NCBI GenBank assembly: GCA_964532495.1
Contig: CAZHJZ010000002.1
Coordinates: 1,693 to 65,692, forward strand
Reading direction: 5' to 3'
Source of the DNA: an uncultured Candidatus Saccharibacteria bacterium
GTDB lineage: Bacteria; Patescibacteriota; Minisyncoccia; Phycocordibacterales; UBA9973
Length of the DNA stretch: 64,000 nucleotides
Position 1 is the stretch's first letter. Each line of letters starts with the position of its first letter. Under the pieces are notes generated by a model that did no database searches, was not told the origin of the DNA, and worked only from the letters and a program-made list of their open reading frames with translations. The translations under genes were made by a program, and so were the position numbers. This document shows, in pieces, positions 9,291 through 62,432 of the stretch.

Positions 9291-12200
9291 TTAGGCTGGT
9301 ACATTCTGTTCCAACCATCTGTACATATTCTCAATGCGTAGCCTCCAAATGTGAGTTTTTATCTTTCTCCATTCTTCAGGCAGGTACGGAATATGGTTAT
9401 TAGTAGCGAATCGCTCTATGTGCGGCATTTCAAAATTAATGCGTCCATTCAGCGAACATAAGCCCGCAATGCCATACGGTGAACCGTTTGGATTGTGGGG
9501 ATAATCATCAGTTGGCTTGCCATTGTAGCCTGCATACTGAGCAGTAACCATGCCGGAATCCATCAATTTTTGGTAGTCATTTGGGTTTTCAAGCCGGAAG
9601 TTTCCTTCAGCATGAGCGCTCCATGCGGGCATAACAGCACCGCCAAGACCATTGAACAAAATTGATTTACTTTCCGGAATATATAGTGATACTGGGCGGT
9701 GTTCAAACCTGCCAGATTTGTTATGTGTCATACGAGGCGAGCCTTGAATGCCAAGTTTCGCAAAGTCTTCATCAAACAAACCTACAAGCGTTGCCCATTG
9801 CTTACCATTGCATCTGCCGTTAACAAACGTATACGGCAAGGCTATAAGATCTTTCAGAATTTTATTTAATTTTTCGTTAAACAAAAAGCTTCCAGCTAAA
9901 CCTTTGCCGCTGCCAAGCACATCTCCGTAGGAAAATCCTCCGGGAATTTCAAGGCAGTGGAAATCCAATAAATCAGGAATTTCCCCCGATTGTAGTTTAC
10001 TCAGTAGTATATGGTGTACTTCAAAACGATTTCTACCTAGCATTCCATACATATATGCTGATTCATCCTGACCGTTTGTCCCCGGTGCCGCAAGTACGGC
10101 AACCTTGAAGGTTCGTCTGGTTTCGAATGTCACCGGCATATCTGGCTGGTGCACTAGTTTGTATGTTGGTATACCTGATTTACCGCCAGCTTCGCGATAT
10201 GCGAGTCTCTCTGGTACGCCGTTCATTATTTCTATTTCACTGCCTTTTTTCAGTAGCAATTGTTGTAGTTCTACTCCCGAAGCGCTGAATACTGCGTTAT
10301 TACCGGAAGGATTTTTCTGTATATGCAATCCTGACCAGCCTACTGTTGTTTTGCCAATTGCATAAGCAGTTAAGCCAAGGTTATTGGCTAACGTAATAAT
10401 CTCTTTAGCTTTTGCGCATTCAAGCACAATACCGGCCTCCTCGTTAAACAAAAATGAAATCTCATCCACGCCATCTGGCAATGTTACTGTTATTCCATTG
10501 TTGGTTGAGAGAACCATTTTTGCAAGCGTAGTGATAAGGCCGCCCGGCTGTATAGCCATGCCTGCGGTTAGTTTTTTCTTGCGCAATAATAATTGTACAA
10601 GATTGAAGCATTTCATTGCTTCAGTAATTTTAACATCAGGCACTTTATTGCCGGTTGCATTGTAACTTTTGTAGAGAGCTCCGCCGCCCATGCGAGCTTT
10701 GCCCCCACCAAGATCAATGTATACCAGTTCTTTGTTGCCTTGTACGCTCGGTGTTATCCGTTTACGGAAATCGCTCATATGAGCACCAGCTTCTAAGATT
10801 GCTGTATCTGCTGAAGCGACAGTCTGTCCATCAAAGGTAGTTGAGAGCGAAAAACTATCTTTTCCGCCATTCGCACTTAGTTCTGATTCAACCATTGCTT
10901 CAGTTAAACTTTCAGCAGCGCTATAAAAGCGGGCTTTTCCACCTAGGGCTTTGAAGAACCACATCCAGTTAAGGCGAGTACTTATTTTTCTAGTGCCGCC
11001 AGGTATATGTGTGCATGCAAGCGTCAGCAGTAAGTTAGCCACAAGCATTCTACTAGTAGCTCTTTCGTCGATTTGCATTGCGATCGGATTGCTCCGAACG
11101 AATGTTCCAACTACAGCGCTTAGGCCAGTAAAGCCTTGCGACTGAATGCCGTATGTATTAACTGGTAGTAAGTGCACGCCATCGCGTGGCCCCTGAACTA
11201 CTTTTCCGCCTACGCTATGGTCAAAAGTGTTAACCATATAAGTAAGCAACGCAACGCTTGATAAACGAGAAACCCATTCGAAATGTTGGCGTACGCTTTT
11301 TTCCGGCAGAACATACGGCTGGAAATCTCTACGTACGGTTGTATCGGTATAGGTTTTTTGCGGCAGCTTGCCCAGTATATGTTCAAGTTCCAATCTTTCA
11401 GGTTCCCGATTATTTCCTGGCGTAGTATCAATTACGCGCAATAATCCATCACCGGTAATTTCACCTAAAATTTCATAGCCGCAGTTAAACCATTTGCAGA
11501 TCTGAATAAATAGCGGGATGTTTTCTTTTTTAATCAGTGCGCCGTAAATTTCCTGCGATTCCGCAGTCCATACCGTGCGCTGATTGAGTGTTTCAACCGC
11601 TTTGCGAATTTTCTTCAGGTCTACAAACCCTCCTACAGGTGCCATAAGTTCGGTCAGCATGTTCGAAGCACCACCCGCACCTTGATCTTCAAGGCTTTCA
11701 AGCGGATTATCTTCGAGCAATGACAGACAAAAAGTAATTACATTGGCTGCGCAGAGGCCGATCATCGGCTCGCCGCGCTGTACGCTCTTAAAATCAAGCT
11801 TGGCGTTGTTAGTGCCGGCATCCATACTCGATGCAGAACCTCCGCCAACCCCAATATCAAACGTCTTGCCGCCAAAACGCACTATCTGCATACCTACCTG
11901 TGGCACTTGTTTTTCTTTTGCACGTGCAGGTATAGAACCAATGCCACCGGTATAAATAATCGGCTTAATTGTTTCCATCCTTGAACCGTCAGGCAATTCG
12001 ATTCCAACCTCATCATTTCCAAACACAAGCGTAGGCTCTCCAAATGGATTGCCGTAGCCAGCTGCGCCTTTAATTGAGCCAGTTAAAACTGCGCGTGGAT
12101 GAGCCATGTTTTTGGGATATTTCCAGCCCGATGTGTTTTTCAACAAACCAGTTTGAAAATATATTAATCCAAAGCCTACCCATGCACCGGTTTTGATAAC

Positions 12201-13124
12201 TTTGCTGTCGCGCAATCTTCCGCCCGGTCCTGTTTTAGCTCCAGCTTCGGGGCAAAACAACGTTGGGTGGTTGTGCGTTTCAGCAGTCATTGTGTGATCT
12301 ACAAGCAAGCGAACTTTTTGGTAAACGCCTTTTACAGGCATCCATACTTCAACCCATCCTCCTGCAATCACGCCGCCGTTGTCTTTAAAGGCAACTTTGA
12401 CATTTGTGTGCTTGGATGTAAGCGTTCTTTTTACCAATTCAAACGGCGTCATTTCTTTCTGTTTTCCGTCAATAATGTACATGCCTGCAAACTCCCAGTG
12501 CCGGCAATGGCTTGAATTGCCTTGGCCAAGATGGGCAAGGGCAACCTCCGTTGGGTTTGTTTTATAAATGTTTGCAAACATATTGTAGTAATACTGTATG
12601 TCGGCAGCATCCATAGCAAGGCCAAGTTCCGTATTAGCTTTTTCTAATTCTTTGGGTCCATTGCCGAGCAAGTCATATACGATTGTCGGTTCGTATTCCG
12701 TTTGAAGAACTAACTGCCGCGGCAATTCGTTCTCGTAGTAAGTCTCACGCATTTGGTCTACCGTTCCGGCTACTAGCGATGCAACATCGCTTTTCTCGGC
12801 CAGGTAAGCTGTAAACTGTTCAATTTTCACGATGCAGTCAATGCCAGAATTGTGGCAGATAACCGTCGCCTTTTCAGACTCCGGTGTTTCAAACCGCAAG
12901 TTAGGTCCAATGAACCCAATTTGTTGGTTCCTGTTTGGCTGCATGTAGTGCGCGATATTCGTACTGTGTGATTTGGAAAAAGGATGGGGGTTGAGCAGCC
13001 AAAGAAGACGTTCAGTCTCTTGTGGTGTCGGTTCCCTCCTCACTTCTACCGCAAACGCAGTCAACGAATTCGGATGTTGAGAATTGCTGAAAAATAAATA
13101 CAAAATTTTGTTCATACGTAACAA
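9291..13124 (-). CDS. purL: phosphoribosylformylglycinamidine synthase, single-chain large type (FGAM synthetase + C-terminal glutamine amidotransferase)
   Basis: 1277 aa; ...AETHNHPT... (ETHNHP signature), duplicated PurM-like fold, C-terminal GATase with conserved Cys (NGRCNGKQ). Confidence 0.85.
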   Translation of the reverse strand: MLRMNKILYLFFSNSQHPNSLTAFAVEVRREPTPQETERLLWLLNPHPFSKSHSTNIAHYMQPNRNQQIGFIGPNLRFETPESEKATVICHNSGIDCIVKIEQFTAYLAEKSDVASLVAGTVDQMRETYYENELPRQLVLQTEYEPTIVYDLLGNGPKELEKANTELGLAMDAADIQYYYNMFANIYKTNPTEVALAHLGQGNSSHCRHWEFAGMYIIDGKQKEMTPFELVKRTLTSKHTNVKVAFKDNGGVIAGGWVEVWMPVKGVYQKVRLLVDHTMTAETHNHPTLFCPEAGAKTGPGGRLRDSKVIKTGAWVGFGLIYFQTGLLKNTSGWKYPKNMAHPRAVLTGSIKGAAGYGNPFGEPTLVFGNDEVGIELPDGSRMETIKPIIYTGGIGSIPARAKEKQVPQVGMQIVRFGGKTFDIGVGGGSASSMDAGTNNAKLDFKSVQRGEPMIGLCAANVITFCLSLLEDNPLESLEDQGAGGASNMLTELMAPVGGFVDLKKIRKAVETLNQRTVWTAESQEIYGALIKKENIPLFIQICKWFNCGYEILGEITGDGLLRVIDTTPGNNREPERLELEHILGKLPQKTYTDTTVRRDFQPYVLPEKSVRQHFEWVSRLSSVALLTYMVNTFDHSVGGKVVQGPRDGVHLLPVNTYGIQSQGFTGLSAVVGTFVRSNPIAMQIDERATSRMLVANLLLTLACTHIPGGTRKISTRLNWMWFFKALGGKARFYSAAESLTEAMVESELSANGGKDSFSLSTTFDGQTVASADTAILEAGAHMSDFRKRITPSVQGNKELVYIDLGGGKARMGGGALYKSYNATGNKVPDVKITEAMKCFNLVQLLLRKKKLTAGMAIQPGGLITTLAKMVLSTNNGITVTLPDGVDEISFLFNEEAGIVLECAKAKEIITLANNLGLTAYAIGKTTVGWSGLHIQKNPSGNNAVFSASGVELQQLLLKKGSEIEIMNGVPERLAYREAGGKSGIPTYKLVHQPDMPVTFETRRTFKVAVLAAPGTNGQDESAYMYGMLGRNRFEVHHILLSKLQSGEIPDLLDFHCLEIPGGFSYGDVLGSGKGLAGSFLFNEKLNKILKDLIALPYTFVNGRCNGKQWATLVGLFDEDFAKLGIQGSPRMTHNKSGRFEHRPVSLYIPESKSILFNGLGGAVMPAWSAHAEGNFRLENPNDYQKLMDSGMVTAQYAGYNGKPTDDYPHNPNGSPYGIAGLCSLNGRINFEMPHIERFATNNHIPYLPEEWRKIKTHIWRLRIENMYRWLEQNVPA

Positions 13125-28738: not shown

Positions 28739-29455
28739 ATGAAAACACTTGTATTTTTGGATACTGAAACTACTGGTATTGGGCCTGACGATCGGCTCTG
28801 TCAGCTAGCGTATATAACTGAAGGAGAAACATATAACGAATTATTCAAACCCCCACTACGGATTCCAGCCGAAGCTAGCGCTGTTACTCACATTACAAAC
28901 AAAATGGTGGCAGACAAGCCAGCGTTTCAAGACTCTCCCGACTACGCGCGCATCAAGGCTCTCTTAGAAGACCCGAATACTATTATGGTTTGTCATAATG
29001 CTCAGTTTGATGAAGGAATGCTAATTCGGGAAGGAATTAACCCCTCACAGTATATTTGTTCGCTTAAAGTCATTCGATATTTGGACAAAGAAGCCAAGTT
29101 CACGCAATACAAGCTTCAATATCTTAGATATTTTCTTGAAATTGAGATTGAAGCCGCGGCTCACGATGCGCTTGGCGATGTATTAGTGCTTGAAAAGTTT
29201 TTTGATTACATTTTAGAAGCAATGATGAAAGAAACTGGCGGCGATGAGGACGCCGCTATTGCAAAGATGATAGAAATTTCGCAGAACCCCTCGTTACTTT
29301 CTAGTATTAATTTCGGTAAACACAACGGGAAGAAAATAGTTGAAGTTGCCCAGATCGATCCGAGCTATCTTGAATGGCTCCTTGCGCAAAAAATTCAAAA
29401 CCCTAATGGTGAAGAAGACTGGATCTATACGTTAAAGTTTCATTTAGGAAAATAA
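28739..29455 (+). CDS. DEDDh 3'-5' exonuclease (DnaQ/PolIII epsilon-like) with C-terminal extension
   Basis: Start at MKTLVFLDTETTG (Exo I), ...HNAQFD (Exo II), ...HDALGD (Exo III, DEDDh). Confidence 0.7.
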   Translation: MKTLVFLDTETTGIGPDDRLCQLAYITEGETYNELFKPPLRIPAEASAVTHITNKMVADKPAFQDSPDYARIKALLEDPNTIMVCHNAQFDEGMLIREGINPSQYICSLKVIRYLDKEAKFTQYKLQYLRYFLEIEIEAAAHDALGDVLVLEKFFDYILEAMMKETGGDEDAAIAKMIEISQNPSLLSSINFGKHNGKKIVEVAQIDPSYLEWLLAQKIQNPNGEEDWIYTLKFHLGK

Positions 29456-29456
29456 T

Positions 29457-29484
29457 AAAAAAAACGCCGTTAGGCGTTTTTTTT
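29457..29484. terminator. bidirectional rho-independent terminator
   Basis: AAAAAAAACGCC-GUUA-GGCGUUUUUUUU. Confidence 0.8.
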
Positions 29485-31849
29485 ATTGAGTGATAGTGGA
29501 ATCTGTTTCTGGCGCTGGAGTCGGATCAGGCGTCGGCTGTGGTTCTGGTGTAAGTTCCGTCTCCATTTGAGGTTGAGTGTCAGATATTACTTCAGGATCA
29601 CTGGCTGGTGGAGTTTCTTCTGGTGTAGTTGGTATTACCGGATCATTATTGAGTTGCCCCTGACTCCCCTGGTTTTGTCCAGAGATTTGATTTTTAAGTT
29701 CAATCAATTGTCGTACATCATTCTCTGTTAAACATTGACCGTCAACACAGAGCTGGTGAGTAGTAACTTTGTCTGAAGAAACATTTCCGAGTCCGTTTGT
29801 GCTACTTCCGAGCCATGACATGAGAGTAGTTTTGAAACTGCTATCACCTATTGTATCAAAATTCTCTATGTTCTTGATCTTAATATCTAATTCACGGATT
29901 GCCTGGAGATTAAGTAAATTTAATCGCGTGTAATTTACTTGTCGATAGCCATCCTTATCAAAGATAACCAAATCTGGAAAGACTGATTCAACATTTTGAG
30001 CAAGCACGCCTAGTTGAGGTATACCGCCAATAAAACCTCGAGACTGTGCTAGTTCGTTCCAGTCAAAAGTTACTAAGTTTACTTGTACAAGCTTATCAAG
30101 CACATTTCCTACTGGCTGAATATTTGTTTTTAAGCGTTCATCTGACGAACAACTTCCACCGAGAATTCCACCGGCAAAGTCTTTCAAACAGCCATTGGAG
30201 CCTGATGTACCGACGCGTATGTCGCCAAATACTTCAAGCTTGTCTCCAGTTGATGGTGTCACCCCTAATCCAACAAAGCCCCCATCCCACACAAGGTTGT
30301 TATTCATAATAAGCGATGTGTTTGCACCAGGAGTAGTCGGGCTGCCTTGTTCCTGCTCATACCGAAGCGTAATCGCTCCATCGACAATATCAATACTGTT
30401 TCGCAAATAGTTATTGATATCGTCAGAATTTTTATTTGAAAAGAGAGATACGCCATTGTTTGTTATATATACTGCTCTGTCGTCGGCACATGGAGTAGCG
30501 CCGGGAATATTGTCGTTACATCGGAAAAATGTTGCATCATCCTTGAACGAGGTGAAGCCGTAGCGCATATTTGTATTGAGGTTTCTTGTTTCCAAAATAC
30601 CCATTGTATTTCCTCCGTTTACTTTTCCGCCAATATCAACTGAAGTGTTTGCCGCATGGTCATTCAACCAAAGTGCTGTGCCATTGTCATCAAGGGCAAG
30701 AAATGAGTCGGTATTCGCATTCATGGTGGAATTCAACTGAACAGAGCCATCATTTGCCATACCAAAGGAATTGTTTGAAGTTGCACCATTGTTGTAAACC
30801 TGGAATAACCCTGGTTTCACATTAAAACTTATATTATCAGTAGAAACAGTTCCTCCCACTTGAAAAGACTTTGCACCATCGTCCCAAGTGAAATCGCTAC
30901 TTCCGCCAAATGCTCCGGTGTTATTAAACTGAATGCTTGTATCTGGTGCAGCCGGATTAGTTGGGCTTCCGCCGCCAACCGTTGCCCATGAGAAGTGACC
31001 AGAACCGTCAGTTACCATAGCTTGGCCATTCGTGCCGTCTACTGTCGGCATAGTAAAGAATGTTCCGTCGTAGTTATAGCGAAAACCACTTCCATCAAGC
31101 TCAATTCCTGTACTAATGCCGCCAGTTGTAGTTGAAGCTAAATTTATGCCACCCGATGCAGGCATGGTTAATACTGAGCCAGTTGAATTTATACCGTTAT
31201 TTGAGAAAAGCTTAATTCGTGGGTTGCCACCATTCCATTCATTTGCAATTGTTGTTGTTTGTTGTCCCGTAAAATCTAAAAGAAAACTCTGAACAGCCTT
31301 ACCTGAACCGACGTTCAAGTCTCCATTTAGCGTTCCGTAGACATATCCGGCTGTTGGATCAACTGATGTTACTCCTGCGAATTGTTCACCACCATCAAGG
31401 AAATTATCATTGTTCCCCATCCTTGTCTCTGTGCCGTCTCCGTGCGTAAAGGTGTTCATGAAGTCGCCGGCTACATGTACTGAATATCCAGGAGTTGTGG
31501 TTCCGATACCTACCTTGCCGTCAGCGAGAACGCGCATCGCCTCAGTATTATTTGTTTTTATTACAAAAGCCTGTGAGTCTGTGGTACCAATGAAGTTAGT
31601 TCCGGGGGTTGTACCTGCATTTCCGTTCAATCCCCATCCGCCAATGTTTTGAAAACAGTTAGACGATCCAGGCGCGCACCCTGGATCAAGGATGCTGTCT
31701 CCTGCAGCATATCCTCCAGATGGCGGAGTAGTCCCGTTCGGCAATTGAGCAGCCATAACCACATACGAATACCCTGTTACCGCAAAGATGCATAGAAATA
31801 GCAAAAAATACTTATTGGCAAATATGCTGCGCCTTGGGTTCATGTACAT
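29483..31849 (-). CDS. secreted tail-fibre-like protein with C-terminal intramolecular-chaperone (peptidase S74-like) motif, paralog 1
   Basis: 788 aa; signal peptide, conserved N-terminal block AQLPNGTTPPSGGYAAGDSILDPGCAPGSSNCFQN, Gly/Asn/Thr-rich fibre-like repeats, ...GGSCSSDERLKTNI... autoprocessing motif, coiled coil, Pro/Thr/Glu-rich tail. Confidence 0.6.
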   Translation of the reverse strand: MYMNPRRSIFANKYFLLFLCIFAVTGYSYVVMAAQLPNGTTPPSGGYAAGDSILDPGCAPGSSNCFQNIGGWGLNGNAGTTPGTNFIGTTDSQAFVIKTNNTEAMRVLADGKVGIGTTTPGYSVHVAGDFMNTFTHGDGTETRMGNNDNFLDGGEQFAGVTSVDPTAGYVYGTLNGDLNVGSGKAVQSFLLDFTGQQTTTIANEWNGGNPRIKLFSNNGINSTGSVLTMPASGGINLASTTTGGISTGIELDGSGFRYNYDGTFFTMPTVDGTNGQAMVTDGSGHFSWATVGGGSPTNPAAPDTSIQFNNTGAFGGSSDFTWDDGAKSFQVGGTVSTDNISFNVKPGLFQVYNNGATSNNSFGMANDGSVQLNSTMNANTDSFLALDDNGTALWLNDHAANTSVDIGGKVNGGNTMGILETRNLNTNMRYGFTSFKDDATFFRCNDNIPGATPCADDRAVYITNNGVSLFSNKNSDDINNYLRNSIDIVDGAITLRYEQEQGSPTTPGANTSLIMNNNLVWDGGFVGLGVTPSTGDKLEVFGDIRVGTSGSNGCLKDFAGGILGGSCSSDERLKTNIQPVGNVLDKLVQVNLVTFDWNELAQSRGFIGGIPQLGVLAQNVESVFPDLVIFDKDGYRQVNYTRLNLLNLQAIRELDIKIKNIENFDTIGDSSFKTTLMSWLGSSTNGLGNVSSDKVTTHQLCVDGQCLTENDVRQLIELKNQISGQNQGSQGQLNNDPVIPTTPEETPPASDPEVISDTQPQMETELTPEPQPTPDPTPAPETDSTITQ

Positions 31850-31941
31850 ATAGTATATGTCTAAATCCTTGATATACCAAGGAAAAACTGTGAATTAGCA
31901 TGTAAATTTTGCTGCAAATCAAATAATGATATACTTCTTGC

Positions 31942-54253: not shown

Positions 54254-55561
54254 TTAGAAAGGCAAATTCGATGGTGGTTTTGCGGTCTTTGAATCGATAC
54301 GCTTGAATGATGGTGATTCTGAAACCAAACCTGGGAAGTGAAAGATGGTTGCAAGTTCCTCAGTATTTAGTACGAACACATTCGGCGGATTGGATGGGAA
54401 GAAGAATGAGATCGGTTTTGGAAAGTTAAACGAAAGGAGCAGCGGCGGATAGAAGCATGTGCGGAGCTTATAGTACGTAAGCATACGGCCTTTCAATTTC
54501 TCCAACAACTTTCCTGTCGGATCGCTCCATGGGTAGTCGTATTGGGCTGAGTTTACACGCGCGAATTCATTTGACTCCGGGTCAGCATATTGACGCCAAA
54601 TCAAGCGCGAAGCACGGCGAGTATTGTTAAATGTATGAATATCCACAAGCCGTTTATCAGCCAAGATTACTTGTCGGATAAGCACATCGAACACTAACTT
54701 TGCTTGTTTTTCTTTGACACCTTTCACGGTATCTTTCAGATATTCAGGAACACGGGCATCGAACGATGCAGTAAATGATCCATCCGGCGTATCGTTCTTT
54801 TGCGTACGTTTATAAGGCGCAAGCAATCGTTCCAATTCCTCTTGAGATCCATCCATAAATCCTACCTTGTGGCCATGGTGCACATCGCTCACATATCCTT
54901 TTTCAGATTGTCGAACAATAATTTGCAGCCATACCTGCTCTCCTTTTTCGAGGCTGCCCAAAAATTCAATGACCGGCGTGATCGGATCAACCTTATCTTC
55001 TTCTTTCAATCCAGCCTTATCAAGACCATAGTCTTTGTATGTTTTGATCGGATAGGCGTCATGTTCTTTAAGTTTGAACTCGCAGCCCCAGAGATACCAG
55101 TTGCCATCATTTCTGTATCGAGGAATAGCAAGTGTATAGTCTTCTACTTCCGTTACTCGGACTTGAGGATATTGGGCGTAGAGCTGAGTCTCAACCATTT
55201 TCTTGAGACGTGATGGTACTCGTATGACAAATCGCACTTTACCGTCAATGCCGACAAGTTCGAGGGAATACCAAAAGTGAACGGCACCTTGCCAATAAAT
55301 TTCCCATACGCCTTTCATGCTCATATGGTAGAGAGCGTTCGTTAAGAAAAGTTCCATGGCGAGCGGTGTCTTCTGCATTTCTCGAGGAATAGTGACTTCG
55401 AGCATGCTCCATTCAATGCCACCGATAAATCGTTCGCTCACAAAGTGGTGCCACAGGAAAAAAGCTAACCACCCAAGAAGGAGCGGCGCCCAAATGATGG
55501 ACAATTTCCATATGATGGTGAAGATGACAGAAAGAACTGCAATAATGATGGAACCAATCAT
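54254..55561 (-). CDS. membrane protein, function unknown (two N-terminal TM helices + ~380-aa soluble domain)
   Basis: 435 aa, co-directional and tightly spaced with fibre-protein operon. Confidence 0.35.
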   Translation of the reverse strand: MIGSIIIAVLSVIFTIIWKLSIIWAPLLLGWLAFFLWHHFVSERFIGGIEWSMLEVTIPREMQKTPLAMELFLTNALYHMSMKGVWEIYWQGAVHFWYSLELVGIDGKVRFVIRVPSRLKKMVETQLYAQYPQVRVTEVEDYTLAIPRYRNDGNWYLWGCEFKLKEHDAYPIKTYKDYGLDKAGLKEEDKVDPITPVIEFLGSLEKGEQVWLQIIVRQSEKGYVSDVHHGHKVGFMDGSQEELERLLAPYKRTQKNDTPDGSFTASFDARVPEYLKDTVKGVKEKQAKLVFDVLIRQVILADKRLVDIHTFNNTRRASRLIWRQYADPESNEFARVNSAQYDYPWSDPTGKLLEKLKGRMLTYYKLRTCFYPPLLLSFNFPKPISFFFPSNPPNVFVLNTEELATIFHFPGLVSESPSFKRIDSKTAKPPSNLPF

Positions 55562-55573
55562 GGAGTAAGTATA

Positions 55574-56056
55574 CTATAAACCTGATTTGAAATGAACAGG
55601 AATGCTAATATATTTTTTCTGCAATCCAGGAAGCATGTTTTGTATTATGATAGTTCCCTCTTCGCTGAAGAACGAAACGGGAGGATTGAGTGTTGCTTCA
55701 AAATAGTACGGCTTTCCGTCGGCTATATTTGCTGCTGATACAGGAAGATCTACTTTTGAAATTATAAGACCATTCCCTGCAAGCAATGTCGCTGTGCCGA
55801 TGACTCCGTTTACAGGCTCCCAATCGCATCCATTGCCATATCCATATACTTTATAAGGAAAAGATACGGAAGCATCTTTCTTGGGAGCGTATAACGTTAA
55901 TCCACAATCAAGCTTTAGTATTTTTTTATAATTACCCAAGCCGAACGGATGCTGTTCGGTAAAATACCCCATGGCAAAAAGCGCTACCAAGATGCCAAGA
56001 AAAGTAAGAATGATAAACGGTATTATTCCTCTGTTTGTATTGTTTTTTATTTTCAT
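55574..56056 (-). CDS. small membrane-anchored protein (possible Ig-like extracytoplasmic domain)
   Basis: 160 aa; N-terminal TM; overlaps upstream fibre gene by 4 nt (translational coupling). Confidence 0.35.
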   Translation of the reverse strand: MKIKNNTNRGIIPFIILTFLGILVALFAMGYFTEQHPFGLGNYKKILKLDCGLTLYAPKKDASVSFPYKVYGYGNGCDWEPVNGVIGTATLLAGNGLIISKVDLPVSAANIADGKPYYFEATLNPPVSFFSEEGTIIIQNMLPGLQKKYISIPVHFKSGL

Positions 56057-58023
56057 TGGGATGGTTCCGAAACTGGTAACTGATCAGATTGGTTACTTTC
56101 AGTCGGCGGTGCGACTTCCGTCCCTGTAGCAGAATCCACTGAGGCATTTTCTGAGACTTCAGGTACTTCTGGAACTGAAACTTCTGGAACGGGAACTTGA
56201 ACTTCTGAAACTGGTACTTCTGGAACTGGATTGGATACCTGCTGGGATGAATGCAGCTGTGATTGTGAACTTAAAATCTCATCCACTTGTGAACGGTCAA
56301 GGCATGTTTCTCCGTTCGCATCCGCTACACAGATTTTTTCAGTAGTGAGCTTGTGTGCAAAGATATTTTGGATACCATTCCCTGCACTGCTCAACCACGT
56401 TGCTACTTGAGAAATCAATGAATCTGCACTGAGGTTTGAAGAGCTCTCTAGATGCTTTATTTTAATATCAAGTTCTCGAACCGCTTCTACTAAAAGTGGT
56501 GTCACTCCTGCGTAGTTTGCCTGCAAATAGCCATTTGGCGCTGTTGAAACAAGTTGTGGATAGATGGACTGCAGGTTTTGTGCAATAAATCCGATGTGTG
56601 TATCGCTATCTTGCCCCTCTTTCCAATTATAAGTCACTGTTCTCAGTTGCGTGAGTGTTTCGAGGGTTGAAGGTGGTAAATCAGTAATATTTTTTTTCAA
56701 TCGTTCATCAGAAGAACAAGAGATACCTGCTCCTGATGTCGTGTTGACACTACATGAGGTGAAACCGCTACCGGTAATCACCATATCGTTGATTGGATAC
56801 AAAGTTGAACCGATAACCATTTGATTGCTTGCGGTTATCTGTGCCGCGCGGCCAATAGCTATAGAAGCGTTGAGGCCAGGTGCACTTGCAGCAGAGTCTG
56901 ATCCAATAAAGATATTATTACTCCCGGTTTCATTGTTTGCTCCAGCAGTGTCACCCAGTGCTACGTTAAATGAACCCGATGTATTGTTTTGTCCTGCCAA
57001 TGCTCCAAGAAACATGTTGTTTGACCCGAGACTATTCAATTTTCCCGCCTGATAACCAATAATGACATTTGAAAATGGAGAGGTAGTGTTTGCGCCGGCT
57101 TCATAACCAAGCATTACTGAGTTTCCGCCAGTAAGAGTTGAACCTGCCCCCCAGCCAATCAAAGTATTGGCTCCTTGTGCGTCCTGGCTCGTACCTGCGA
57201 ATGCGCCAATAGAGACTGAACGCTGATAGGTTGCCCCTACAGCGCCTATGCCCGCCTGCTTACCAATAGAAATGTTGTCTGTGCCGGAAGTGTTTTTTCC
57301 AGCTGAAAGTCCAATGTTAAGTTTTCCTGCAAAAGAAATATCGAGTATGTTATCAGTTGTTGTTGATCCAAAAGTAAAGCTGCGTGCTACGTCATCAAGT
57401 AAAAATCTCGTACCATTCGCAGCAATATTTGTATCACCGAGAGAAACAGTTCCAGTAGTTCGGCCAATAATTGTTTGAGCAGTGTCATTCACTTCAATCA
57501 ATGTACTATTTCTTTGATCATCTATATCACCAAGCTGAACAAGATCATCTGGCACATGAACGAAAAATGAAGAATACTGGCCGTCATTTACCCCGAAATC
57601 AACCGCGGTTGCACCTACAGTAGAAGCACCGTCATCAAGGTACAAAACTGTCCCATTTCCAGCACTATTGACATCTCCTGCAAAAAACGTACTCGTTGCG
57701 GTATCAATTGTAGTAGCTTTTGTCGCCGCATCTCTCATAAAACCAGCATCGCCGAATACGTTTCCTGAATTATCTGTATACAGCACTTGATCTGCTGCGC
57801 CTCCGATTATTTTTTGTCCAATATAAATACCCGAATTCTGAAAGCAATTTAATGAACCTGGCGCGCAACCCGGTTGAAGAATACTATCGCCAGCATTATA
57901 TCCTCCGCTTGGAGGAAGCGTCCCATCGGCCAGCTGTGCTGAAAATACGACCACTCCATATCCTAGGACGGAGAGAATAGTGACACAAACAGCAAGCAGC
58001 TTCTTATGAGGAATGAGTGTCAT
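56053..58023 (-). CDS. secreted tail-fibre-like protein with C-terminal intramolecular-chaperone (peptidase S74-like) motif, paralog 2
   Basis: 656 aa; signal peptide; AQLADGTLPPSGGYNAGDSILQPGCAPGSLNCFQN; Gly/Asn/Thr repeats; ...GAGISCSSDERLKKNI...; coiled coil; C-terminal (PEVxV)n repeats. Confidence 0.6.
   Translation of the reverse strand: MTLIPHKKLLAVCVTILSVLGYGVVVFSAQLADGTLPPSGGYNAGDSILQPGCAPGSLNCFQNSGIYIGQKIIGGAADQVLYTDNSGNVFGDAGFMRDAATKATTIDTATSTFFAGDVNSAGNGTVLYLDDGASTVGATAVDFGVNDGQYSSFFVHVPDDLVQLGDIDDQRNSTLIEVNDTAQTIIGRTTGTVSLGDTNIAANGTRFLLDDVARSFTFGSTTTDNILDISFAGKLNIGLSAGKNTSGTDNISIGKQAGIGAVGATYQRSVSIGAFAGTSQDAQGANTLIGWGAGSTLTGGNSVMLGYEAGANTTSPFSNVIIGYQAGKLNSLGSNNMFLGALAGQNNTSGSFNVALGDTAGANNETGSNNIFIGSDSAASAPGLNASIAIGRAAQITASNQMVIGSTLYPINDMVITGSGFTSCSVNTTSGAGISCSSDERLKKNITDLPPSTLETLTQLRTVTYNWKEGQDSDTHIGFIAQNLQSIYPQLVSTAPNGYLQANYAGVTPLLVEAVRELDIKIKHLESSSNLSADSLISQVATWLSSAGNGIQNIFAHKLTTEKICVADANGETCLDRSQVDEILSSQSQLHSSQQVSNPVPEVPVSEVQVPVPEVSVPEVPEVSENASVDSATGTEVAPPTESNQSDQLPVSEPSQ
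56150..56235 (-). repeat. imperfect 15-18-nt tandem repeats (coding, PEVPVSEV low-complexity tail of fibre protein 2)
   Basis: repeated (u)acuucuggaac(u/g)g(a/g)a units. Confidence 0.5.
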
Positions 58024-58067
58024 AGTAATATTGAACTAGTATACCAATAAAATACCTTGCAGCGCAA

Positions 58068-61172: not shown

Positions 61173-62432
61173 TTATCTCGTAAACGAAAGCCACTTATTG
61201 TCTTCTCTCTTTATAAGCAAAACTTTTTTTGCCATATTTTTATTTTCCTCTACACGGCCGATAACATCAGTATGTATACCTAGTTCGCGAGATTGTTGGA
61301 TAAATTCCCGTGCCAGGCCATTATCGCTAAAATATACTTCTTTTAAAACCCCTACATTTGTTGTTTCATGTAGTTCCCTTTCCGAAATTTTTCCGGCTTT
61401 CTGGTATGCACGGAAAACGGGAGGGATAAGCCCTAAATTGTGAAGTGAATTTTTAACAACTTTTATTCCAGGTTGTACGTAACCTAAAACTTTAGTTTGG
61501 CCACCGCCGCTGTTATGGATTATCCCTGTTATTTTCTTTCTGTTTTTAGGAGAAAGGTCATCCAGGAAACTTTTAAACAACGGGGCGCATACTCGAGTCG
61601 GCGATGTTAGTACCTTGCCAAGCGATTCTGCGCCAATAAGCATATCTTCCACGGAATATTTTCCGCGAAAAATCAGTTTTTTATACTTTTTGTCGGTAAC
61701 CTCAGGGGCATACGTCTCAGGAAACTTAGTTTTATACTCAGAATGGAGAAAGCCGTGGCGAAAACCGGTAAAACCGTTTGATGCCGGGCCATAATTCTCT
61801 TCTTCTTCCCATTCAGTTTGGCCATGCGATGCAAGTCCTACTATAATATTGCCCGGGGCAATTCTTTCAGTAGTAATTACATCAGTTTTCTTTATTCTGG
61901 CAGTAACCGACATATCAACTGTTACCGTACGAACTTGGTCCGCAAGGTCTGCAGTCTCTCCGGTTCGATAATCTATTAGAATGCCGAATTTTTTCATATG
62001 CTCGCAAAATGCTTTTGCTCCGGCAATAATCTCATTAATTACTTCGCCAGGAATAAAAAACTTGTTGCGGTTTATAAACATCACGGCTATGTAGGGACCA
62101 GTAACTCCTGATGCCACCATATCGTTTATGTTCATTGCCATTGCATCTATTCCTACGCCGCGCCAAACTCTAATATCTCCTGTTTTCTTCCATAGCAGGT
62201 AGGCAAAAATTGATTTGGAACCGCTGCCGTCTCCATGGCTGCAAGTTACATAGTTTGGGTCACCTGCAAGGTCTAATCCAAATTTACAAAAACAGTACGG
62301 TATTTCACCTTCGCCAAGCTGGGCAACGGCTTTATGTACTTCTTTTTTGCTTGTACTTACTCCAAGTTGCTGGTAAGTTGACTGCGGATTCTTGAGGCGC
62401 TTACGCCTCGTAGTGTTGAGAACAAGTGGCAT
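61173..62432 (-). CDS. purM: PurM-family protein (AIR synthase-like; phosphoribosylformylglycinamidine cyclo-ligase-like, with extended C-terminus)
   Basis: 419 aa; N-terminal block order YQQLGV.., CSHGDGSGSKS (DGVGTK-like), VGIDAMAMNINDMV (IGIDLVAMCVNDLV-like), TGETADL (GGETAEM-like). Confidence 0.65.
   Translation of the reverse strand: MPLVLNTTRRKRLKNPQSTYQQLGVSTSKKEVHKAVAQLGEGEIPYCFCKFGLDLAGDPNYVTCSHGDGSGSKSIFAYLLWKKTGDIRVWRGVGIDAMAMNINDMVASGVTGPYIAVMFINRNKFFIPGEVINEIIAGAKAFCEHMKKFGILIDYRTGETADLADQVRTVTVDMSVTARIKKTDVITTERIAPGNIIVGLASHGQTEWEEEENYGPASNGFTGFRHGFLHSEYKTKFPETYAPEVTDKKYKKLIFRGKYSVEDMLIGAESLGKVLTSPTRVCAPLFKSFLDDLSPKNRKKITGIIHNSGGGQTKVLGYVQPGIKVVKNSLHNLGLIPPVFRAYQKAGKISERELHETTNVGVLKEVYFSDNGLAREFIQQSRELGIHTDVIGRVEENKNMAKKVLLIKREDNKWLSFTR

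Follow-up and report, generated by a model that had tools for sequence, protein, structure and literature searches.

In a 64-kb stretch of DNA (the window), two paralogous chromosomal genes encode P1 and P2, which on balance we regard as exported, trimer-forming surface fibers of a probable member of the Saccharibacteria. In both, an S74 domain would fold the fiber and then be removed, and a variable tip would bind a ligand. P1 is a complete open reading frame (ORF) of 788 aa (29483..31849, minus strand) with a likely true start at Met3, and P2 is an ORF of 656 aa (56053..58023, minus strand); the two ORFs are present as the original prediction described them. They have a signal peptide, an N-terminal module, a shaft, an S74 domain, and a C-terminal extension with a tail, and the catalytic residues are conserved. 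PF13884 was the only domain found by Pfam in P1 and P2, and NCBIfam matched nothing in P1, P2, or the unknown neighbor proteins.

The S74 intramolecular chaperone/autoprotease domain of P1 (residues 569–665; 29855..30145, minus strand) ends in a long helix. The cleavage signature GGSCSSDERLKTNI lies within the PF13884 match, as had been claimed, and contains Ser569 (codon 30143–30145) and Lys574 (codon 30128–30130, both minus strand). The PF13884 scores were 57.7 bits for P1 569–628 and 62.8 bits for P2 438–492, against a cutoff of 22. The SDxxxK dyad of P2, whose S74 domain starts at Ser438, consists of S438 and K443. Across 45 aligned homologues, and likewise across 12 full-length members, the Ser, Asp, and Lys of SDxxxK never vary. 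A profile of the family matched the solved S74 domains 6F45 (6e-22) and MyRF 7DC3 (3e-19), and also 8JOV, phi29 3GUD, and T5 8HQZ. Furthermore, the predicted fold of the P1 chaperone region agrees with solved chaperone domains, so that sequence, profile, and fold evidence all support S74 for the C-terminal part of P1. This AlphaFold model of the C-terminal region is a monomer built on a 45-sequence alignment, and it is weak in two places, with pLDDT values of 42 to 59 just before the cleavage site and 51 to 86 in the extension; a single-sequence run on P1 535–725 gave a pLDDT of 32 and was unusable. The long helix, modeled at model residues 121–147 (P1 640–666), agrees with the coiled coil that had been placed after the S74 motif. 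A conserved region precedes the cleavage site (residues 521–568; 30146..30289, minus strand), with a second copy of the VG.G..P...L.V loop motif (525–540) and a Cys554-Cys567 pair. Upon cleavage, this region would become the C-terminal tip.

At the other end, each protein has a single hydrophobic segment, located N-terminally, in line with the signal peptide proposed earlier for P1. The Sec-type signal peptide of P1 (residues 1–33; 31751..31849, minus strand) combines three basic residues (R6, R7, and K13) with a hydrophobic core, and its cut is predicted between VMA and AQ; its K13, Y27, and V31 are invariant across the family. The cut was placed by the −3/−1 signal peptidase rule and not by a predictor, and the rule is satisfied in both P1 (VMA, AQ) and P2 (signal peptide 1–28; VFS, AQ). 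Next comes the family-specific N-module of P1, AQLPNGTTPPSGGYAAGDSILDPGCAPGSSNCFQN (residues 34–68; 31646..31750, minus strand), with its Cys58-Cys65 pair. The block is nearly identical in P2, as had been noted (residues 29–63, Cys53-Cys60), and tblastn found no third copy in the 64-kb window. At about 35 aa, the N-module runs straight into the shaft unit in P1. All Cys residues of P1 outside the signal peptide form local pairs (58/65, 444/454, 554/567, and 701/706), of which C58, C701, and C706 do not vary across the 12-sequence full-length alignment.

How the fibers might be held on the cell was considered from known anchoring signals. No LPXTG motif, lipobox, second transmembrane segment, or cell-wall-binding domain was found in P1 or P2. 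Anchoring by sortase (LPXTG) is ruled out by the absence of a C-terminal hydrophobic segment, and lipoprotein anchoring of P1 is ruled out because the signal-peptide Cys20 varies among members and has no lipobox context. Some sources call relatives trimeric autotransporter adhesins, but P1 and P2 do not fit that description, since they have no YadA-type anchor and their Pro-rich C-terminus contains no hydrophobic or β-barrel segment; faint YadA_head-like repeats in some relatives are confined to the shaft.

The proximal shaft of P1 (residues 69–330; 30860..31645, minus strand) is 55 to 78% identical to that of the relatives P0003–P0005. Its unit at 72–128, W.L.GN.GT..TNFIGTTD..F.IKTNN.E.MRV..G.VGIGTT.P, is common to Bacteroidota fibers and to Bdellovibrio Bd3182, and is 54 to 64% identical to a unit present at least three times in Chryseobacterium P0036; P2 has no obvious copy of the capping-loop unit. 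P1 88–129 aligns to Bd3182 (8OJN) with E values of 1.4e-3 (full protein) and 3.8e-4 (mature part), and Bd3182 is the sole PDB sequence match of mature P1. The shaft had been described as Gly/Asn/Thr-rich fiber-like repeats. The composition is as described (Gly 12.6%, Thr 10.4%, and Asn 9.8% in P1), but self-BLASTP of P1 and P2 gave no repeats at E≤0.01. Thus, the repeats of P1 are a matter of composition and cannot be demonstrated in the sequence.

The distal shaft of P1 (residues 331–520; 30290..30859, minus strand) is a variable cassette with the Cys444-Cys454 pair inside, and is only about 20% identical to P0003–P0005, versus 55 to 80% in its flanks. Similarly, P0003 and P0004 have both ends in common and differ at residues 321–560. 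In windowed comparisons, P0008 and P0009 are 95 to 100% identical, but only 32 to 62% at 481–720. Distal shafts are thus exchanged like cassettes between family members, and the shafts of P1 and P2 are mutually unrelated. Pfam and the PDB sequence search identified no ligand-binding fold in the distal shaft.

The scheme that we infer for trimerization, cleavage, orientation, surface retention, and host binding would run as follows. The Sec signal peptide would export the chain, and cleavage after Ala33 of P1 would expose the disulfide-looped N-module as the new N-terminus. Three C-terminal S74 domains would then associate, templating a trimeric shaft. Subsequently, the Ser569/Lys574 dyad (Ser438/Lys443 in P2) would cut just before Ser569, freeing a fragment of about 220 aa that comprises the chaperone, the extension, and the Pro-rich tail. 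The mature fiber, P1 34–568, would be exposed with its distal, cassette-like variable part available for a ligand, most likely a surface structure on the bacterial host of the episymbiont, and the paralogue-conserved N-module would keep the fiber on the envelope of its producer. Host attachment by P1 and P2 is plausible because of the analogy with the mosaic adhesive trimer (MAT) fibers of Bdellovibrio and the mosaic distal shaft.

The family extends well beyond the window. The secreted layout with a common N-terminal module, proposed from the two ORFs, holds here, and an exhaustive representative search found the N-module at residues ~5–70 of ~208 cluster representatives; a word-indexed profile search had returned only three short fragments. 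The signal peptide and the Cys-loop N-module together mark out a subfamily of this size. Of the N-module members of at least 450 aa, 89 of 95 (94%) also carry S74. Two other scans gave few loci: one in the genome collection with P1 peptides, and three in metagenomes with the N-module. The probable assignment of the window to the Saccharibacteria is based on one named MAG, which carries an orthologue with 69 to 71% identity. Two paralogues occur in the window and at least four in one Saccharibacteria MAG; members sit at fixed syntenic chromosomal sites, with fibers of 656/881/914 aa and 1047/1457 aa. For Southlakia, a cultivated Saccharibacterium, the annotation tables contain no S74 or tail-fiber term, and therefore the family may be missing from the only genetically tractable relatives. 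We found no relevant report in the literature that links any of Saccharibacteria, Patescibacteria, and CPR to a tail fiber, S74, an endosialidase, or an intramolecular chaperone.

Whether such fibers would determine which host is bound is a separate matter. P1 and P2 might instead be general surface fibers, serving self-aggregation, biofilm, particle adhesion, a protective coat, or as a phage decoy; their production and processing would follow the scheme above, but they would have no part in setting the bound host. The same shaft unit occurs in S74 'tail fiber domain-containing proteins' encoded by hundreds of free-living Bacteroidota and other bacteria, so this architecture is no mark of a parasitic lifestyle. 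Moreover, published work on host attachment in Saccharibacteria points to type IV pili and other adhesins and not to S74 proteins. However, the subfamily with N-module and extension is distinct from the Bacteroidota proteins, and replacement of distal-shaft cassettes between near-identical strains is what one would expect of a specificity determinant that is subject to diversifying pressure. That replacement could equally reflect phage or immune-type pressure. Weighing these points, we consider a purely general role unlikely.

A less probable explanation is that P1 and P2 are secreted, tailspike-like depolymerases that digest host capsule or cell-wall polysaccharide, so that their function would be digestion or access and not adhesion. 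S74 domains commonly cap phage depolymerase tailspikes; the PHROG matches include hyaluronidase and tail-spike families, in the S74 region only, and the 3GW6 chaperone itself comes from an endosialidase. Against this, Pfam, NCBIfam, and the PDB sequence search found no glycosidase, lyase, or other catalytic domain in the shaft. The shaft resembles only the non-enzymatic fiber units of Bd3182 and Bacteroidota proteins, and those of P1 and P2 bear no relation to each other. We doubt an enzymatic role.

The region beyond the chaperone is the second family-specific part. In P1, the subfamily-specific extension (residues 666–725; 29675..29854, minus strand) comprises a helix with W679-L680...N685-G686, a Cys701-Cys706 hairpin, and a second helix. 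The tail (residues 726–788; 29486..29674, minus strand) is rich in Pro, Thr, Glu, and Gln and probably disordered. Pro, Thr, Gln, and Glu are abundant over the last 70 residues, in line with the Pro/Thr/Glu-rich tail of the original prediction. P2 similarly has an extension with Cys565-Cys574, followed by a tail rich in Pro, Val, Ser, and Glu. As judged by HMM coverage, the extension is present in most long N-module members and absent from phage families and most cellular S74 proteins, and the PDB sequence search found nothing for the extension and tail. S74 proteins with N-module and extension are a distinct and variable family. In Gram-positive bacteria, surface proteins with Pro-rich segments that span the wall are known. 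Conceivably, extension and tail could tether the precursor in the cell wall, in which case the S74 cut would free a soluble, diffusible N-terminal trimer, somewhat as in MyRF. In its favor, the subfamily-specific extension and Pro-rich tail lie C-terminal to the cut. However, a C-terminal transmembrane segment or sorting motif is absent, and the conservation of the N-module among paralogues whose shafts differ is easier to understand if this module forms the attachment end. We thus judge this arrangement very improbable.

Housekeeping genes flank P1 on both sides (ExoX-like/YqeY/GatB/Obg and RmuC/DnaK), as they do P2 (sigma-like/BipA and YceG/MnmA/AlaRS), and no phage structural genes occur across the 64-kb window. 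Neither the N-module nor close relatives of P1 and P2 were found among 2.9 million viral contigs, and the shaft units are common to cellular fibers of Bacteroidota and Bdellovibrio, not to a particular phage. The description of P1 and P2 as domesticated phage receptor-binding proteins is therefore not specifically supported. That P1 and P2 are tail fiber genes left from a prophage or a phage-derived particle (tailocin/PLTS), as the many phage tail-fiber PHROG families matching the C-terminal 100 residues might suggest, is close to refuted by this genomic context, by the syntenic position of the genes, in other genomes too, at these housekeeping sites, by the presence of a Sec signal peptide instead of a virion-attachment domain, and by the lack of viral relatives. 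Directly downstream of P2 lie two membrane-protein genes (54254..56056, minus strand). One encodes 160 aa (55574–56056, minus strand) and overlaps the P2 stop codon, and the other encodes 435 aa (54254–55561, minus strand), with an orthologue that has a faint DUF8128 match and with no hit in the PDB sequence search. Both genes are at the same position in L006 and L009; whether they are parts of the fiber system is uncertain.

The orthologue of P1 begins at the residue equivalent to P1 Met3, and the true start is therefore probably the ATG at 31843. A promoter-like TTGGTA-17-TATACT (31852..31880, minus strand) precedes P1, and its −10-like TATACT stops 2 nt upstream of the P1 ATG. The 17-bp perfect palindrome reported at the start is actually 15 bp long (ACATATA-C-TATATGT, 31846–31860). 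The window contains 10 perfect palindromes of this class, and Markov-1 simulations gave 10.0 ± 2.9; hence, the palindrome is no more than expected by chance. It is not conserved in the orthologue L001 and overlaps the −10-like box. On these three grounds, we reject it as a regulatory element. The intrinsic-terminator-like hairpin (29454..29487, minus strand) is real and, located between P1 and the convergent ExoX-like gene, is shared by both.

Published work on host recognition by ultrasmall CPR/Patescibacteria episymbionts centers on type IV pili, together with a small number of lectin-like adhesins (PMC12206443, PMC10633639). Variable surface fibers resembling phage tail fibers would add concrete candidates for host-range determinants, and would extend the MAT concept to a cell envelope and a lifestyle far removed from those of Bdellovibrio. 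More speculatively, Saccharibacteria and related CPR episymbionts may carry, on their own cells, a counterpart of phage receptor-binding proteins: multi-paralogue, self-processing trimeric S74 fibers at fixed chromosomal sites, with swapped distal cassettes that track the diversity of host surfaces, a lineage-specific signal peptide and Cys-loop N-module as mount on a monoderm envelope, and a lineage-specific extension that aids extracellular assembly. We put this forward tentatively, as somewhat less probable than its opposite. If true, it would be the second independent use, after Bdellovibrio, of a phage-like device by a bacterium living on bacteria, and a candidate determinant of CPR host range. 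If the proteins are merely generic surface fibers, they would represent one more case of S74, a domain already annotated automatically in cellular genomes. Two uncharacterized modules are also defined here, the N-module and the post-chaperone extension.

P1 and P2 can be compared with four known systems. The Bacteroidota 'tail fiber domain-containing proteins' (PF26696 + PF13884, e.g., Chryseobacterium P0036) have the shaft unit of P1 and an S74 end; in contrast to P1 and P2, neither the N-module nor the post-chaperone extension occurs in 70 of 94 such proteins, and some have T9SS sorting domains instead. The phage chaperones of K1F endosialidase (3GW6), T5 pb1 (4UW8), phi29 gp12 (3GUD), and S16 gp37 (6F45) have the same fold and Ser/Lys motif, and the same role would be expected, namely trimer nucleation followed by self-removal. 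However, P1 and P2 do not belong to a virion: a Sec signal peptide takes the place of the virion-attachment N-terminus of phage fibers, and the genes lie in a housekeeping context. Furthermore, the S74 match reaches the protein end in phage profiles, whereas P1 and P2 go on for about 125 aa. The ICA domain of MyRF (7DC3) has the pre-cleavage VG.N/G..P...L.V motif in common with P1. Unlike P1 and P2, MyRF is a transcription factor that is tethered to the membrane and has a transmembrane segment at its C-terminus, and its cleavage frees an N-terminal DNA-binding trimer; P1 and P2 are predicted to be extracytoplasmic and have no such segment.

The closest characterized analogue is the Bdellovibrio MAT fiber family (PDB 8OJN/8ONB/8ONC), in whose members a signal peptide and a conserved N-domain precede a mosaic shaft, 13 of 21 ending in S74 (PMC10769870). 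Self-cleavage (at S782 of Bd3182) and surface localization were shown experimentally (PMC10769870; Caulton et al. 2024), whereas the P1/P2 family is known from sequence and models. In P1 and P2, the N-terminal block spans about 35 aa and contains a Cys loop, whereas that of MATs is about 130 aa and β-rich, and no similarity between the two was seen; about 125 extra residues follow the chaperone in P1 and P2. Besides, their producer is presumably a monoderm CPR bacterium with no outer membrane or periplasmic invasion stage. The likeness lies in a chromosomal multi-paralogue family of a bacterium living on other bacteria, with a signal peptide, a perhaps comparable N-terminal part conserved among paralogues, and a long shaft with the V-G-x-G..P...L loop unit (as V-G-G/N-pi-x-x-P-x-x-x-L at P1 88–129, with a second copy at P1 525–540). 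In both families, distal parts are exchanged among members, and, in the S74 subgroup of MATs as in P1 and P2, an S74 domain with SDxxxK stands at the end.

Both open reading frames of the original prediction were borne out: P1, the fibre protein at 29483-31849 (-), has 788 aa, and P2, its paralogue at 56053-58023 (-), has 656 aa. BLASTP also upheld their near-identical N-terminal block (AQLxxGTxPPSGGYxAGDSILxPGCAPGSxNCFQN); the C-terminal ~180 residues are 36% identical (E 3e-30), and the shafts between these similar regions are unrelated. Self-BLASTP did not recover the internal repeats ascribed to the fibres, and tblastn found no third copy in the window. The predicted signal peptide corresponds to one hydrophobic segment per protein, at the N-terminus, after which the -3/-1 rule is satisfied (between VMA and AQ in P1, VFS and AQ in P2). 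In family alignments, the signal-peptide core (31751-31849 (-)) is unusually conserved, K13, Y27 and V31 being invariant, and the motif S[IV]xGY[GS]xxV[FM][AS]A recurs in members otherwise 27-50% identical. Such conservation may point to a signal peptide with a specialised role or to an anchor that is retained.

The terminator assigned to P1 (29454-29487) was also found, between convergent genes. The palindrome at the P1 start codon is 15 bp long (ACATATA-C-TATATGT) rather than 17 bp; perfect palindromes of this class number 10 in the window, against 10.0 ± 2.9 in Markov-1 simulations, and the one in P1 is not kept in the orthologue. It overlaps a -10-like TATACT, which ends 2 nt upstream of the annotated ATG. 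Since the first residue of the orthologue aligns with Met3 of P1, the actual start is probably ATG 31843, 8 nt from the -10 box, and the P1 mRNA would be nearly leaderless. A -10-like TATACT lies very near the start of each fibre gene (31843-31880 (-) and 58024-58060 (-)), and neither gene shows an obvious Shine-Dalgarno sequence; a -10 box so near the ATG suggests leaderless or near-leaderless mRNAs.

The Pfam profile of S74 (PF13884; cutoff, 22 bits), the intramolecular chaperone of phage tail spikes, matched P1 at residues 569-628 (57.7 bits) and P2 at 438-492 (62.8 bits). When a profile built from 45 C-terminal regions was searched by sequence against solved structures, it matched phage S16 gp37 (6F45, 6e-22), the ICA domain of myelin regulatory factor (MyRF; 7DC3, 3e-19), 8JOV (9e-18), phi29 gp12 (3GUD, 1e-8) and T5 pb1 (8HQZ, 3e-5). 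The Ser, Asp and Lys of SDxxxK are invariant in the 45-sequence alignment and in 12 full-length relatives. Single-sequence AlphaFold gave a pLDDT of 32, and the model used was alignment-based, with a pLDDT of 87-97 across P1 569-659; Foldseek on this model agrees with S74. The profile and structure comparison of the C-terminus proposed beforehand was thus passed, and the S74 domain of P1 and P2 is real. Since PF13884 was already precomputed for P1 itself, what is new here is the subfamily and its biological setting, the domain having been annotated automatically.

Close relatives have a common layout: signal peptide, a short Cys-pair block (N-module; GGY...DP.C...C), variable shaft, S74 and helix, W-L-x(4)-N-G block, Cys-x(4-9)-Cys hairpin and Pro-rich tail. 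When 1.84 billion representatives were searched exhaustively by HMM with an N-module profile, 208 proteins matched at E<=1e-3, with the module invariably at residues ~5-70. Of these, 95 are 450 aa or longer; 89 of the 95 have an S74 region, and in most the match continues across the extension, the residues between S74 helix and Pro-rich tail. The 94 S74 proteins from the first search comprised 20 with N-module and extension, 1 with N-module alone, 3 with extension alone and 70 with neither. Phage PHROG profiles stop at the S74 helix end, and the PDB contains nothing related to the extension. Every Cys outside the signal peptide lies in a local pair, as expected of an extracytoplasmic protein. 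One N-module-bearing protein, P0141, has Kelch repeats in place of S74; on a 746-kb contig (L007 18826-20352), genes for a Kelch-repeat and a DUF4907 protein lie immediately after rplB, within the cluster of ribosomal protein genes.

Both genes are chromosomal and embedded among housekeeping genes. P1 lies between Obg, GatB, YqeY and an ExoX-like gene to one side and RmuC and DnaK to the other; P2 has BipA and a sigma-like protein upstream and YceG, RNase T, MnmA and AlaRS downstream. Elsewhere, the window encodes PurL, GAPDH, transketolase, RpoA and similar genes. The nearest relative in the genome collection, P0002 (69-71% identity), lies on an uncultured Candidatus Saccharibacteria MAG contig and likewise neighbours RmuC; therefore, the window is probably from Saccharibacteria. 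It encodes a full-length PurL-type FGAR amidotransferase (1277 aa; 9291-13124 (-)) and an AIRS-domain gene (61173-62432), purine-synthesis genes that are unexpected in a reduced episymbiont genome, so reduction may have gone less far in this lineage than in oral Saccharibacteria. A literature search found no paper tying S74 or tail-fibre-like proteins to Saccharibacteria or CPR, and the Southlakia Tn-seq annotation tables hold no S74 or tail-fibre term.

One Saccharibacteria MAG (GCA_964450735.1) has at least four members (P0002, P0011, P0015 and P0057). Two further genomes, L006 and L009, keep the P2 site, in the order sigma-like gene, fibre, 159-aa protein, 433-aa protein and YceG, with fibres of 656, 881 and 914 aa across the site; fibres of 1047 and 1457 aa occupy a second fixed site, between SIMPL and tuf-S10. 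Windowed identities show distal shafts being replaced as cassettes. P0008 and P0009 are 95-100% identical save at residues 481-720 (32-62%); P0003 and P0004 have the N-terminus (92-98%) and C-terminus in common but not residues 321-560 (18-32%), while P0003 and P0005 have part of the distal shaft in common (68-88%) but not the N-module. Identity between P1 and P0003-P0005 is 55-78% across residues 121-320, drops to about 20% across 361-520 and rises again to 58-80% across 521-640. P0002 carries an insertion of ~85 aa relative to P1 at its residues ~115-200, which adds an extra VGIGT..P...L.V shaft unit, so shaft length varies by whole units among close relatives. P2 is directly followed (54254-56056 (-)) by genes for two unannotated membrane proteins. 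The gene of the 160-aa protein overlaps the stop codon of P2; the 435-aa protein has a faint DUF8128 hit in its orthologue and a weak phrog_5156 hit in the window copy. Both genes occupy the same position in three genomes (the window; L006 2900-4690; L009 11749-13542); their functional tie to the fibre is uncertain, because they were not found beside fibres at other loci.

Alongside the domain identity, architecture, context and mosaicism observed, the best-supported reading of the fibre has five steps. It would be exported by Sec with removal of the signal peptide; the chaperone would template trimerisation; self-cleavage before Ser569 would release a ~220-aa fragment; the conserved N-module would hold the mature fibre on the cell; and the variable distal part would face outward. 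Trimerisation, cleavage, orientation, cell retention and host binding are what we infer. Rival readings would make the proteins generic surface fibres, tailspike-like depolymerases, phage remnants or MyRF-like released factors. Against a phage remnant, the window has no phage genes, and 2.9 million viral contigs yielded no N-module and no close relatives.

A repeated unit of a Chryseobacterium 'tail fiber domain-containing protein' is 54-64% identical to P1 72-128, which suggests building blocks shared or exchanged with Bacteroidota. Putative Saccharibacteria genomes repeatedly encode proteins with the T9SS C-terminal sorting domain (PF18962, Por_Secre_tail; L003 10719-12404, L004 3802-5478 and L007 1-64), the one in L003 lying between two S74 fibre genes. 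This Bacteroidota-type domain is surprising in a monoderm CPR bacterium and may reflect gene transfer from Bacteroidota or another use of the domain. In a PDB sequence search, the sole solved structure similar to mature P1 was Bdellovibrio Bd3182 (8OJN, E 3.8e-4), an S74-type mosaic adhesive trimer (MAT) fibre. Its structure stops at A781, before the catalytic S782; cleavage there has been shown experimentally and is prevented by the S782A substitution (PMC10769870). By analogy, the P1 cut would fall between Ser568 and Ser569. In each of the 21 Bdellovibrio MAT fibres described by Caulton et al. 2024 (PMC10769870), a signal peptide is followed by a conserved N-terminal domain, through which the fibre is proposed to attach to the predator, and by a trimeric shaft bearing capping loops; the tips are exchangeable, and 13 of the fibres terminate in S74. 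MATs follow the same design logic as the P1/P2 family, whereas their conserved N-terminal part spans ~130 aa against ~35 aa for the N-module, and the post-chaperone extension and a presumably monoderm producer are on the P1/P2 side.
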